From: an uncultured Bacilli bacterium
GTDB taxonomy: Bacteria > Bacillota_I > Bacilli_A > RF39 > UBA660
Length of the DNA: 64,000 nt
Reading direction: 5' to 3'
Assembly: GCA_910583945.1 (NCBI GenBank)
Contig: CAJTYF010000004.1
Location: 3,597 to 67,596 of the forward strand
The first letter of the stretch is position 1; every line of letters begins with the position of its first letter. The position numbers and the translations under genes are program-made. Shown in pieces: positions 14,749 to 18,318 of the stretch. The notes under the pieces were generated by a model. That model saw only the letters and a program-made list of their open reading frames with translations, made no database searches and was not told the origin of the DNA.

Positions 14749-17109
14749 CTATTTAATTTCGAAACTTCTATTAGAAGATAAATTAGAGTTAAAGAAATCG
14801 GGTAGGCCTATCATTAACGTTTTAATTATTAAAAAGAAACTTTCGAGTTGAATCATTTTGTTTAAATTTTTCTGACTCATTCCTAGACTTCTTAAAATCG
14901 AAAATTCCATTCTTCTTAGGTTGATGTTTGAACTTAGGGTATTAAACATACTTAAAATACTTATTAATGCTATAAATAAAAGAATAAAGTAAAGGAGACC
15001 TTTTATAACAAGGTAAAGTAAATAGATTTCGTAATTTTCTAGTGCTCGATTTTCATATTGAATATGATTTGAGGCGTATTTCTTTACAATTTGATTTATT
15101 TCATCGTCTAATTTTTTAAATTTTCGACTATTTATTTCTATTTTCCAATATTTCTTTAAATAGTCTTCATAAGTTTCATTGGTGATACTACTAAAATTTT
15201 TGGTATTTTTACTAATAAAGTTGGTGACTAGATAATTAAATTGTTTTAAGTCTACAACTAATGTCAGTGTATTAAATTTGTTTAAGTAATTCTTATTGGT
15301 TAAGTATAGATTTTCTAAAGTTAAATACGGCTCATGTGTAATATACTGAGTTGTATTTTCTTGGTCCTGGATTTCTATTTCACAAATTTTTATTCTTTCC
15401 AGATTGTCTTTAAAGGCTTCAATTGTTTCGCTTTCATTATTTTTTTCAATTTCTTTTAAGTTATACAGAATCATTCGGTCGTCTTTTAATCCTAATTCTT
15501 TTTTATATTTTTGATAATTTTCTTCATCTAAACCTACTAAAGAAAGAGTATGATAATGATTGTTTTGATTTAAATACTCTGGGTTAAGAAATTCTTCTTC
15601 CCCTTGAAAATAAAGAAAAGCTATTTTTGATTCTACATAGTCATCCATTAATTTTATATTTTTAATTTCTTCAATAATTTTTTGATTGTCTTTTTCCTCA
15701 TTATCAAATAAAGTAATGTCTATATCAAAAGAATGATGAAAGGTGTTTTTTGTTTGTTCTAAAAAATAATTTATAAAAGTAGAGCCAACAATAAATAAAA
15801 CAAAACTTATGGTTAGCGAGGTGGTAATGAGCAAGAATTTATTACTGTTTCTTTTAATGTTTTTATAAGCCAGTTCTCCAATGGCTCCACTTATTTTTTT
15901 TATTAGGGGATAACTGAATTTTTTTATTTTTAAATTGGTTTCGGTGTTTCTGATTGTTTGAATGGGTGGAACATGACTTGCTGTTTTGGCGGGTTTTCTA
16001 ACGGATAGAAAAATGGTTAGGATGATAAATAAAACGGAGAAAATGAGAAAAGAGATTTCTAAATTTAATTTAAATGGAAGCGGTAATATTGTTTTTAATG
16101 TTTGATTTATAAATAAAAGAATGAGTTCCATTAGCCCTAAGCTTAATCCAAAACCAATTATGATTCCTAAGGATCCTACTAAGCTAGCTTCATAAAGGAG
16201 CATTTTATAAATCTGTTTTTTTGTGGCTCCTATACATTTTAGTCTTCCTAGTTCCTTTTTTCTTTCTATTAGGGAATTTTCAAATGAATTGTAAATGATT
16301 AAAAAGCAAAAAACACTCATAATAGATAGAACAATCCCTAAATAGAAATAAATACGAAATTGATCTAATTTGTTTTGATACGCTCCATAAGCCACTAATA
16401 AGCTCGTATTTATGTTGGTATTTTTAAAAGATTCACTTTTGTTTTTCACTTCACGTTCTAAATTTAACTTAGTAGCGGTCTTCTCAATTTTATCATAAAT
16501 ATTAAAATAACTTTTATAGGTAATAAAAAAATAAGTATGAGCGTTAGATTGATCCAGAAACTCTTTTGTGAAGGCTACAGGTTTATAAATGCTTTTTAAC
16601 GTATCATAATGGTATTCTTGAATTAATTTATTCTCGTTATAAATTCCAACTATTTTATAGTTATGCATCATTCCTTCAAGATCAAGATTCATTTCTTGAG
16701 CCAGATTGTTTGATATTAGGATTTCATTATTATTCTGGGGCTCGCTTCCTTTTATTAGGGTTACATATTCTTTTAGCTCTTCATTGTAGGTAAAAATGTT
16801 TAAAACGGTGTCTTCGTTATTGTTTAATTTAATGGGAATTTCTTCTTTTTTCTGGGTGCATTTAATTGATTTTATCTTTTTGTCTTCTTGGAAAATTTTT
16901 ATAGATTGATAGTCTAAATCTTCAAATTGAACATGGAAATCGCCGCTACTTTTTAAGGCTTCCGTGATGTTTTGTTTTCTTATTGTAGAGGCACCTATAC
17001 CAATAAAGAATAACAACATTGATGTTAAAATGATACTTATTAAAGTCATTTTGGTTCTTTTTTTATTTAACTTTAATTGTTTATTGGTTAGTGTAATCAA
17101 TGTTTTCAT
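14749..17109 (-). CDS. FtsX-family ABC transporter permease (BceB/MacB-like), 3' end frameshifted
   Basis: 786 aa. FtsX signature ELGRLKCIGATKKQIYKMLLYEASLVGSLGIIIGFGL and a second FtsX module near the C-terminus. After ...TLMIGLP the expected C-terminal tail (ISLTLIYLLIEVSKLN...YSVKKIKNTNIIESIKNENI) continues in another frame down to ~14587, implying a frameshift near 14810. No cognate ABC ATPase gene is adjacent. Confidence 0.6.
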   Translation of the reverse strand: MKTLITLTNKQLKLNKKRTKMTLISIILTSMLLFFIGIGASTIRKQNITEALKSSGDFHVQFEDLDYQSIKIFQEDKKIKSIKCTQKKEEIPIKLNNNEDTVLNIFTYNEELKEYVTLIKGSEPQNNNEILISNNLAQEMNLDLEGMMHNYKIVGIYNENKLIQEYHYDTLKSIYKPVAFTKEFLDQSNAHTYFFITYKSYFNIYDKIEKTATKLNLEREVKNKSESFKNTNINTSLLVAYGAYQNKLDQFRIYFYLGIVLSIMSVFCFLIIYNSFENSLIERKKELGRLKCIGATKKQIYKMLLYEASLVGSLGIIIGFGLSLGLMELILLFINQTLKTILPLPFKLNLEISFLIFSVLFIILTIFLSVRKPAKTASHVPPIQTIRNTETNLKIKKFSYPLIKKISGAIGELAYKNIKRNSNKFLLITTSLTISFVLFIVGSTFINYFLEQTKNTFHHSFDIDITLFDNEEKDNQKIIEEIKNIKLMDDYVESKIAFLYFQGEEEFLNPEYLNQNNHYHTLSLVGLDEENYQKYKKELGLKDDRMILYNLKEIEKNNESETIEAFKDNLERIKICEIEIQDQENTTQYITHEPYLTLENLYLTNKNYLNKFNTLTLVVDLKQFNYLVTNFISKNTKNFSSITNETYEDYLKKYWKIEINSRKFKKLDDEINQIVKKYASNHIQYENRALENYEIYLLYLVIKGLLYFILLFIALISILSMFNTLSSNINLRRMEFSILRSLGMSQKNLNKMIQLESFFLIIKTLMIGLPDFFNSNLSSNRSFEIK

Positions 17110-17200
17110 TATAATACTCTTTTCTTTATTTATTATAATTAATTTTTGTTCTAAATTCTATTAAAAAAGAAATCATTTTTTTGATTTTGATTTCCTTCTT

Positions 17201-18193
17201 TTATTTTCGATTCTTTTTTAGAATTTCTAAATATTGATTTTGGTATTTTTTTAAAACTAAGTCTTCTTTTCCCCGAACCATAGCTATAAAGTTTAATCTT
17301 CCTTCTATTACTTTTTTTAATTCTTTAATCAGTTTATTTTTATGTATATTTTGACAATCGTCCTTTTCATCTTTTTTAAAATAATTTAAAGCGGTCGCAT
17401 AAAGCCCCTCTTTTTCACAATGATTCAGTAATGCTCTTAATTTCTTTATGTAAATTTTTTTTACGTTTACCTTTTCATTAACAATTAAACCTGTCACTTC
17501 TTTTCTCTCCCGTTGCCAACTATAATTGGTTTTGGTTTCATTGATGGTAAAGCCACTTCTTTCGATTAATTTTCGTAATTCTTGGCCAAGTATAACTTCG
17601 TTGTCATGATTTCTTTTGACAATTTTTTCAGAAAAAAGGGTTGGACTCGATAAAGTGATATCATCCGCGTATCTTGTATAATGAAATTGATACTGTTCAC
17701 TTAAATGAAGTATTTTTTTATCTAATGAATAACACACAATATTTGAAAGACTGGGTGAGGCTGGTGACCCTTGAGGGAGTGCATTGTGAAAACAGGAAAG
17801 GTTTGCCAGAATGGTTGCGACTTCTTTTGGTAAATTAAATGGCTGGTTCATAAAAATGCCTCGAACACGTCCAAAATGAATGGAGGGAAAGAAATCTTTT
17901 AAATCAATATTTAAAATGTATCCCGCTTTACTATGAATAATAGCATTATCTACAATATTTTTACCTTTGATAAAGCCATATTGACATTCTAAAAAAGTAT
18001 ATTTTTTATCAATATACTCTTTTATTTTTTCTTGTACTTTTTTTAGATTCCAATCAGGTGATGCAATGGTACGATATCCGCCACTTCGTTTTGGCAATTT
18101 AAATGTGTAGTATTTACCTTTTGTTAAAGCTTCATTCAATACTTCCTCATCAATATCTAAAATATAGCTTACATAATTTTTAGGATTTTTCAT
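17201..18193 (-). CDS. retron-type reverse transcriptase
   Basis: 330 aa. RT motifs LPQGSPASPSLSNI and YADD (RYADDITL). Retron hallmarks NAxxH (VDNAIIHS) before motif 1 and VTG (RKEVTGLIVN) after motif 7. The size is typical of retron RTs. Confidence 0.75.
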   Translation of the reverse strand: MKNPKNYVSYILDIDEEVLNEALTKGKYYTFKLPKRSGGYRTIASPDWNLKKVQEKIKEYIDKKYTFLECQYGFIKGKNIVDNAIIHSKAGYILNIDLKDFFPSIHFGRVRGIFMNQPFNLPKEVATILANLSCFHNALPQGSPASPSLSNIVCYSLDKKILHLSEQYQFHYTRYADDITLSSPTLFSEKIVKRNHDNEVILGQELRKLIERSGFTINETKTNYSWQRERKEVTGLIVNEKVNVKKIYIKKLRALLNHCEKEGLYATALNYFKKDEKDDCQNIHKNKLIKELKKVIEGRLNFIAMVRGKEDLVLKKYQNQYLEILKKNRK

Positions 18194-18318
18194 ACTAATT
18201 CCTCGAATTCTAACATTATTGATAAACCCGTAAGAGGTTTTACATATCGTAAGATATGTATTGTTTATACATTTTAATAGTCACTGCGAAACGCTCGTGA
18301 TAGGCAATTCTTATTTCA
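18194..18318 (-). ncRNA. candidate retron msr-msd non-coding RNA (structured leader upstream of the RT)
   Basis: A 125-nt non-coding gap between the ATPase stop (18319-18321) and the RT ATG (18191-18193). It holds two adjacent hairpins with the same CGTAAG loop (TACATAT-CGTAAG-ATATGTA at 18241-18260 and AAACC-CGTAAG-AGGTTT at 18224-18240). GCGAAACGC is at 18286-18294. Exact ncRNA bounds are unknown. Confidence 0.35.

Follow-up and report, generated by a model that had tools for sequence, protein, structure and literature searches.

Several described retrons bear on the locus analysed here. For type XI retrons, no recognisable noncoding RNA (ncRNA) was found in one survey (Mestre 2020), and a retron census paper has validated ncRNAs from clade 8/type XI. 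A group of type XI-like retrons that lack a protease and combine DnaB_C proteins with a compact ncRNA has recently been described, by computation only, under the name TXI_noncan_h (Toro 2026, bioRxiv 10.64898/2026.05.14.725207). The only structurally solved member of this reverse transcriptase (RT) clade is Eco2, whose ncRNA of ~118 nt primes at G15 and stops at RNA position 52, 37 nt later, giving a multicopy single-stranded DNA (msDNA) of 67 nt (PMC12916289). Here, we analyse a window of 64,000 nucleotides from an uncultured Bacilli bacterium (GCA_910583945.1, contig CAJTYF010000004.1), in which a 125-base gap separates a DnaB-like ATPase gene from an RT gene, both on the minus strand. We are confident, within reasonable limits, that the gap is the msr-msd gene of a compact retron consisting of a DnaB_C ATPase, an ncRNA and a stand-alone RT of the type XI/XII/I-C clade. 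This reading is carried by the conserved RNA structure and its strand, the homology of its 5' core to type XI RNAs, the retron motifs of the RT and the strict linkage of ATPase, RNA and RT.

Matched by description and not by RT phylogeny, the window locus fits a new example of the recently described kind. The descriptive features of TXI_noncan_h are all present: a protease-less type XI-like RT, an adjacent DnaB_C gene and a compact upstream ncRNA flanked by the inverted repeats a1 and a2. The likeness, compared by description only, covers a stand-alone RT with NAxxH and VTG motifs, a neighbouring DnaB_C gene, gut-associated Bacillota hosts and, upstream of the RT, a covariation-supported candidate ncRNA with a double stem-loop between a1 and a2. 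Gene order differs, as DnaB_C lies mostly downstream of the RT in TXI_noncan_h (14 of 20 loci) and upstream in 16 of 16 loci of the window family. A 94%-identical syntenic locus, CAJTUR01, whose neighbours are HTH_3, FtsX, DnaB_C and Dockerin_1, stands in Table S2 as 'typeXII, high' and not as low-confidence type XI (Toro 2026). The hidden Markov models (HMMs) of the survey thus type CAJTUR01 as XII without a TIR domain, which makes HMM-only typing of stand-alone XI/XII/I-C RTs unreliable; the Eco2 paper similarly remarks that type I-C sequences have been mislabelled as type XII (PMC12916289).

Conserved RNA structure between the ATPase and RT genes

We compared 16 distinct homologous loci (designated by L numbers), each with a DnaB_C ATPase gene, a spacer and an RT gene. 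The ATPase gene ends 125-139 nt upstream of the RT start in 16 of 16 loci, and all other neighbouring genes vary; it is therefore co-inherited with the RT, as a retron accessory gene is, with a putative role in toxicity or defence. A covariance model, R1, was built from 12 spacers of the window's family. It finds a single match in the window (106 bits, E about 1e-18) and one match per family locus, always just upstream of the RT and ending 10-20 nt before its start codon. Across the family loci, the spacer is more conserved than the flanking proteins. The elements of the unit are as follows.

18203-18312, minus strand: probable retron ncRNA gene (msr-msd), the full conserved structured element and the sole match of R1 in the 64-kb window
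18306-18310, minus strand: a1 inverted repeat GAAUU, pairing with a2 in the RNAalifold consensus
18305, minus strand: candidate branching (priming) G, directly 3' of a1 and followed by C; invariant in 16/16
18281-18300, minus strand: predicted msr hairpin UCAC-GA-GCG-UUU-CGC-A-GUGA; 92% pairwise identity, 100% of cells paired
18269-18278, minus strand: conserved single-stranded linker AUUAAAAUGU; 80% pairwise identity (alignment columns 33-46)
18241-18260, minus strand: twin hairpin 1, 8 bp; RNA loop UUAC closed by C-G, in the DNA sense C-GTAA-G
18224-18240, minus strand: twin hairpin 2, RNA AAACCU-CUUAC-GGGUUU; plus strand AAACC-CGTAAGA-GGTTT, 5 bp
18210-18217, minus strand: AAUGUUAG, directly 5' of a2; predicted first template bases for msDNA synthesis
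18205-18209, minus strand: a2 inverted repeat AAUUC, 95% identical across the family, pairing with a1

The original prediction had pointed to twin hairpins with CGTAAG loops and a GCG-AAA-CGC hairpin in the gap, and they are where it placed them. CGTAAG occupies 18229-18234 and 18248-18253 of the plus strand, the RNA loops of these minus-strand genes reading CUUACG, and the small hairpin reads TCAC-T-GCG-AAA-CGC-TC-GTGA on the plus strand. Of the 7-bp and 5-bp stems that had been proposed, the latter is correct for hairpin 2, which as RNA gains a sixth pair, U-G; hairpin 1, TACATATC-GTAA-GATATGTA on the plus strand, has 8 bp, or 7 bp if its closing C-G is assigned to the CGTAAG loop. The proposed search for an a1/a2 inverted repeat yielded GAAUU and AAUUC at the positions listed. 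An extension of the ncRNA into flanking coding sequence, which had been suspected, is unneeded, as the a1-to-a2 unit of ~106 nt is contained in the gap and the Eco2 ncRNA is likewise small (PMC12916289). From its sequence, we read the gap as a complete, compact msr-msd gene.

The pairing is supported by the alignment. Standard pairs make up 94.9% of cells in the 16 sequences and 29-52% when the 3' partners are slid; 9 of 26 pairs change on both sides, and the covariation score was reached by 0 of 500 shuffles. The RNAalifold consensus recovers the msr hairpin, hairpin 1 and an a1/a2 helix that closes the whole unit, and single-sequence folds give all four helices in most of the 16 members. Hairpin 2 was missed by RNAalifold because MAFFT alone had misaligned it, and was recovered by realignment to the model and by the single-sequence folds. 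Pairing in the a1/a2 helix is 100% for the 12 sequences aligned first and 98.8% once all 16 are included, and the G-C pair of the helix becomes A-U in L003, L102 and L104 (a1 AAAUU, a2 AAUUU). In hairpin 1, where 98.4% of cells are paired, compensatory changes affect five of the eight pairs, with G-C, U-A or A-U at four positions across members; L104 has an unrelated 12-bp stem in its place. Hairpin 2 is a hairpin in every homologue, with a stem that differs in almost every lineage (for example AACCAC/GUGGUU, CACCC/GGGUG and AUCCC/GGGAU) and three pairs with double changes. Conservation in homologous loci had been named as the check on the original prediction, and the hairpins are kept in all 16; its link between the gap and the RT, as an msr-type or retron ncRNA, is borne out by this conserved structure and by the type XI homology described below.

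Identity is unevenly distributed: it is 92-95% in a1, the G, the msr hairpin and a2, and 56-68% in the twin hairpins (hairpin 1, 68%; hairpin 2, 56%). A conserved msr stem-loop is thus followed, at the msd position, by hairpins whose structure is kept and whose sequence varies, with eight compensatory pairs. Judged by sequence, this conservation profile is the classic retron pattern. The twin hairpins had been taken for the msr handle; that part falls instead to the GCG hairpin with a1 and the G, which are common to type XI, and the GCG hairpin is predicted to be the likely recognition handle of the RT. From its sequence setting we infer that G18305 would act as the branch point; an equivalent G, within UUGC, is also found in L004, L014, L018, L093, L094 and L095. 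In the linker, ATTAAA and parts of the next 4 nt are invariant in the 12-sequence alignment (A4), and the later-added member L104 departs from it; by analogy with Eco2, AUUAAAAUGU is likely to be the region where reverse transcription stops. At the other end, AAUGUUAG itself occurs in the window, L001, L003, L102 and L103, with close variants such as AUAUAUAG or AUGUUUAG in other members, and L004, L014 and L095 carry AAAUGUUAG at the same position.

The strand follows from the wobble pairs. U-A changes to U-G in the msr hairpin in 7 of 16 sequences, and U-G is found in hairpin 2 in 8 of 16; on the other strand these would be A-C mismatches, so the selected molecule is the minus-strand RNA, in the RT sense. 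Folding energy alone only weakly suggests more structure than chance, with z = -0.88 (minus strand) and z = -1.69 (plus strand) for the 125 nt as RNA, z = -2.08 for the 110-nt unit 18203-18312 as RNA and z = -2.79 for 18210-18278 as DNA. A further enclosing helix between UAUUA, after the msr hairpin, and UAAUA, before a2, was considered and rejected as unsupported: 86.7% of cells pair, no pair has a compensatory change, and the single changes of L001 and L085 stand uncompensated.

Comparison with type XI retrons and Eco2

The RT gene next to this RNA is as follows.

17201-18193, minus strand: retron-type RT of 330 aa with no fused effector domain (PADLOC, NCBIfam and Pfam profiles)

The best PADLOC and NCBIfam matches of the protein are retron RTs throughout. 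Among the PADLOC profiles, RT-TIR_XII (3e-114), RT-Protease_XI (1e-112) and RT-Toprim_I-C (5e-100) all match, in each case confined to the RT portion of a longer profile. Retron_TIR and retron_Ec67 (1e-91) of NCBIfam match with scores under their cut-offs (Retron_TIR, 330 bits against 600). The alignment covers positions 13-325 of the 510 in RT-Protease_XI, and RVT_1 is the sole Pfam domain, so the protein is not a canonical type XI RT; it covers positions 21-331 of the 475 in RT-TIR_XII and has no TIR domain, and is hence not type XII. The NAxxH and VTG motifs that are hallmarks of retron RTs (Mestre 2020) are present as NAIIH (83-87) and VTG (233-235), together with the catalytic YADD (175-178), which is invariant in the family. 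Among 18 family RTs, A84, H87 and V233-T234-G235 are invariant and N83 is at least 90% conserved. The window RT and its stand-alone relatives (60-69% identity), which come from assemblies of gut Bacilli and Tenericutes, form a tight family; the nearest RTs beyond it are canonical type XI (44-48% identity). In tblastn searches of phage genomes, the RT gave only distant matches, up to about 42% over partial matches, and the ATPase only distant ones of up to 36%; there is thus no sign of a phage origin.

The RNA leads to the same neighbourhood. R1, built from the window's family only, detects type XI loci at E of about 1e-4 to 3e-3, and an exact-pattern scan for the GCG-hairpin core found more loci of the family as well as loci with type XI-like RTs. 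The core UUGC(A/C)UAUCACG.GCG.U.CGCAGUG lies upstream of the RT-protease genes of L004 (554 aa) and L093, the latter identical to P0041, which bears trypsin Pfam domains, and also in L094, L095 and L014. In L018 (an RT-protease of 563 aa) the core has diverged and its outer stem covaries to UCGUU/AACGA. The a1 arms of these relatives, 7-12 nt long, differ in sequence, and each finds its perfect a2 110-140 nt further on, shortly ahead of the RT: AAGAAGUGUU/AACACUUCUU, AGGGAUUU/AAAUCCCU, GAGGGAU/AUCCCUC and UAUAUAAAAGAA/UUCUUUUAUAUA are complementary pairs. A -10 box stands directly ahead of a1, and a UUAA..AUGG motif is found at the linker position.

Canonical type XI retrons (Mestre 2020, clade 8) of Bacillota therefore share with the window system the 5' core of the RNA (a1, UUGC and the GCG hairpin) and its AAAUGUUAG-a2 end. 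They differ in several respects: the window system lacks a protease domain and has a separate ATPase instead; its a1/a2 helix has 5 bp against 7-12 bp; its msd would be ~60 nt with two short hairpins against ~110 nt; and it has no private promoter before a1. By RNA homology, as far as sequence can place it, the window family sits with the Bacillota type XI retrons. R1 showed no sequence similarity to clade-8 RNAs other than those of Bacillota type XI loci. No match to the msr core was found in the supplement of the retron census paper, where line wrapping could hide one, and an exact-pattern scan of viral contigs gave zero matches. A metagenome match to the core, L090, was set aside as a GC-rich chance match with no RT.

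Loci across the broader RT clade carry AUUG after a1, and a short hairpin after that. In an inverted-repeat scan of the cyanobacterial loci L010-L042, ~170-270 nt upstream of the RT match, an a1 of 9-14 nt precedes AUUGAUUUCCGUUG-UUGAUCCUG-CGACGG; this pattern is probably the clade-wide msr consensus, of which the window hairpin would be a variant. Separately, L004 (3753-3940), L018 (3740-3913), L093, L094 and L095 each present a clear msr-msd candidate for Bacillota RT-protease retrons, in the order -10 box, a1 of 7-12 nt, UUGC, GCG-NNN-CGC hairpin, ~110 nt of AU-rich msd, AAAUGUUAG and a2.

Eco2 (Ec67, type I-C1, an RT-Toprim fusion) is of the same RT clade and shares the small ncRNA and the G directly after a1 (PMC12916289). 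Its effector is the fused Toprim nuclease, in contrast to the separate ATPase of the window system. The msDNA strands of Eco2 pair in trans as a three-way junction, without hairpin folding (PMC12916289). By analogy, the palindromic stems of the window could also pair in trans, within an oligomeric complex.

The comparison provides a base-by-base map (a1, candidate branching G, handle, template hairpins and a2) for a retron lineage known only by computational prediction, and links the window RNA by sequence to canonical Bacillota type XI RNAs, a type left without an ncRNA in the earlier survey (Mestre 2020). A natural scaffold as small as this one (~106 nt, with a predicted msDNA of ~60 nt) may interest retron engineers, and the strict pairing with a truncated DnaB-like ATPase raises the question of a possible new effector type. 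The current understanding of how retrons work is unchanged by this result.

Proposed mechanism and rival explanations

Two further features lie upstream of coding sequence.

19163-19192, minus strand: sigma-70-type promoter TTGACA-18-TATAAT; 12/12 consensus matches, best site within 17000-19400
18200-18204, minus strand: ribosome-binding site (RBS) GAGGA of the RT gene, read from the sequence; abuts a2, 6 nt ahead of the ATG at 18193

This promoter probably drives an operon of ATPase, ncRNA and RT. The promoter scan of 17000-19400 gave no site of comparable quality directly upstream of the ncRNA; as the gap has no terminator-like site and the promoter lies upstream of the ATPase gene, the RNA is probably part of the operon transcript.

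In retrons generally, the accessory protein is a toxic effector that is restrained by the RT-msDNA complex. On this pattern, the RNA would be made within the ATPase-RT transcript from the promoter at 19192-19163, a1 (GAAUU) would pair with a2 (AAUUC), and the RT would bind the invariant GCG hairpin. The RT would then prime from the 2'-OH of G18305, copy leftwards from AAUGUUAG beside a2 through both twin hairpins and end in the linker AUUAAAAUGU. An msDNA of ~55-65 nt would result, roughly plus strand 18210-18268, with two mini-hairpins capped by C-GTAA-G. This length follows from the 37-nt spacing of Eco2, which, counted from G18305, ends within the linker, immediately 5' of hairpin 1. Until a phage infection upsets it, the complex of RT and msDNA would keep the ATPase restrained, the protein being assigned the part of effector on the model of other retrons. 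Most likely, the msd template contains the twin hairpins, which would then be found again in the msDNA: their sequence varies as it does in msd regions, and the loop of hairpin 1, in the DNA sense, is of the G..A kind, closed by C-G in 15 of 16 loci.

That loop reads G..A in 16 of 16 members (GAA, GTA, GTAA, GTTA or GATA), its closing pair being T-A in L104. A G..A loop closed by C-G is the pattern of unusually stable GNA-type DNA mini-hairpins, and we know of no comparable reputation for stability of the RNA triloop UUC. The identity of the two loops had suggested a protein-recognition element. Exact identity is not conserved, as the window shares the double CUUACG with just its 94%-identical relatives, L001 and L089; both loops are CUUCG in L002, L092 and L096, and the remaining lineages have unlike loops. 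A looser motif, CUU(N)C, does recur (12 of 16 in hairpin 1 and 12 of 16 in hairpin 2), so that a protein reading the loop sequence is possible. CGTAAG itself shows no enrichment in the window, where 10.6 +/- 3.6 copies are expected and 13 are present. The matched loops are not a pure accident of the window sequence, and the same extra A in both loops, seen in the window lineage only, is a lead and not a result.

Several points weigh against the retron reading or against its details. The a1/a2 helix has just 5 bp, in which AAUU is self-complementary, and one published pipeline demands more than 8 bp. The minimum-free-energy z-scores are modest. There is no Rfam match at the locus, Rfam having no type XI model; a scan of 16800-19600 with E up to 10 returned only a chance lncRNA match inside the ATPase gene. 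An msd usually has one or two long hairpins of 10-50 bp (Mestre 2020), and the stems at the msd position here have just 8 and 5-6 bp. The Eco2 msDNA does not form its predicted hairpin and pairs in trans instead (PMC12916289). Hairpin 1 is fairly conserved in sequence (68%) and could belong to the msr, the window ATPase lacks a canonical start codon (ATC), so that this copy may be weakly expressed, and the msDNA of this lineage is itself a prediction from sequence.

The conservation of hairpin 1 supports a different division of the same retron ncRNA, in which the msd would comprise hairpin 2 and AAUGUUAG only, hairpin 1 being a second msr stem-loop and the msDNA ~30-35 nt long. Hairpin 1 does exceed hairpin 2 in sequence identity (68% against 56%) and has a nearly invariant core, UAUC..GAUA, and canonical type XI relatives show a second hairpin right after the core hairpin. 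We nevertheless hold this division to be unlikely: the stem of L104 at this position is an unrelated one of 12 bp, the G-to-stop spacing of Eco2 puts the stop 5' of hairpin 1, the G..A loop suits a DNA hairpin, and an msDNA of 30 nt would be far below the 67 nt of Eco2. To our knowledge, msDNAs are generally much longer than 30 nt. Less probable still is a reading in which no DNA is made and the structure, within an mRNA leader or between cistrons, controls translation of the RT or the stability of the transcript, for example with the a1/a2 helix beside the RBS gating RT synthesis or with the hairpins as processing sites. The a2 repeat does abut GAGGA, the RNA lies inside an operon transcript with no separate strong promoter, and the msDNA of the lineage rests on prediction. 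Such a leader would, however, leave the invariant G directly after a1 unexplained, and the RT bears all retron-specific motifs. Moreover, type XI retrons in which a promoter of their own immediately precedes a1 share the 5' core and a1/a2, and the census paper includes validated clade 8/type XI ncRNAs.

The least probable of the explanations is that the hairpins serve as an intrinsic terminator or attenuator where the ATPase gene ends, or as a double-stranded DNA operator with palindromes bound by a regulator; we give this hardly any weight. Their position right after the stop codon and the perfect palindrome of hairpin 1 would suit it. The scan, however, revealed no terminator-like site and neither hairpin is followed by a U-run; compensatory changes keep the pairing and not the sequence, one member having a wholly different stem, which is unlike a sequence-specific operator; and the U-G pairs indicate selection acting on the RNA of just one strand. 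The preferred reading thus remains a retron ncRNA with both twin hairpins in the msd.

Within this preferred reading, we put forward one idea that we regard as speculative and, on balance, improbable. An msDNA with two alike caps (CGAAG twice or CGTAAG twice) might be read by the same surface of a ring-forming, DnaB_C-only ATPase, as a pseudo-substrate that parks the helicase-like motor; its loss at infection would free the motor to poison replication or burn ATP. If true, this would make a new retron effector class and a new use of the replicative-helicase fold, and canonical type XI retrons, long said to be without an ncRNA, would gain a defined msr-msd.

The DnaB-like ATPase and the surrounding genes

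18319-19113, minus strand: DnaB C-terminal-domain-only ATPase, 264 aa if the start is the ATC at 19113-19111 (Pfam DnaB_C 4e-52)

Residues 4-263 of the ATPase match positions 162-432 of the 435 in the TIGR00665 DnaB model, and the protein aligns with residues 179-431 of PDB 4nmn (E = 2e-38), including the Walker A GMGKS, SQ(I/L)SR and RP..DL.(N/E)SG motifs. Like the DnaB helicase, it has a linker helix and a RecA-like C-terminal domain with intact ATPase and DNA-binding motifs, so ring formation and binding of single-stranded DNA are plausible from its sequence. Unlike DnaB, it lacks the entire N-terminal domain and is always paired with an RT; it scores 177 bits against an equivalog cut-off of 385 and is only 32-36% identical to cellular and phage DnaB.

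Homologues of the ATPase start with ATG, as MATI(N/T/E)K. At the corresponding Met codon, the window (19111-19113, minus strand) and L001 (3081-3083) have ATC, located 6 nt after a good RBS, AAGGTGA, and one codon past an in-frame TGA. The mechanical open reading frame (ORF) call begins at the next standard codon, TTG 19053, a start that would delete the DnaB linker helix. The ATC is either a rare start codon or a mutation that turns the effector down. Genetic code 4 was rejected as the cause of the missing start: with TGA as the last codon of 7 of 53 long ORFs, and with the long ORFs intact, code 11 applies.

The window cassette is flanked by an M6 peptidase/dockerin gene and an FtsX permease gene. 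Some family loci have a fuller set of genes. In many (L081-L088, L096, L098, L099 and L106), further replication-like genes directly follow the RT, among them DUF1810, Macro domain, extra DnaB_C paralogues, a DnaA-AAA/DnaG zinc-ribbon protein and short DNA_pol3_alpha-like proteins, and L002 and L003 have, at the start of the ATPase gene, a small ORF of 129-162 aa without annotation that overlaps or adjoins it. Neither the post-RT genes nor the small ORF is present in the window; such genes could be extra components or a replication module of a mobile element. Defence or mobile neighbours, namely an LlaJI-type restriction system (AAA_5 and RE_LlaJI), a group II intron RT and a PDDEXK_4 nuclease, are found in L103 (1-1846), L098 (1-1262) and L100 (187-1410), which fits a defence-island setting.

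A 74-nt direct repeat of 78% identity and 102-nt spacing, at 19262-19335 and 19364-19437, falls within the part of the M6 peptidase gene (949 aa) that encodes the C-terminal dockerin repeats and is an ordinary protein-repeat signal with no relation to the retron. Just past the perfect promoter, a small hairpin, CGUAC-UUAU-GUACG, lies at 19137-19150 (minus strand) in the 5' untranslated region of the ATPase gene. It is preceded by AUUACGAU, which makes a third occurrence of the UUACG motif of the twin loops.

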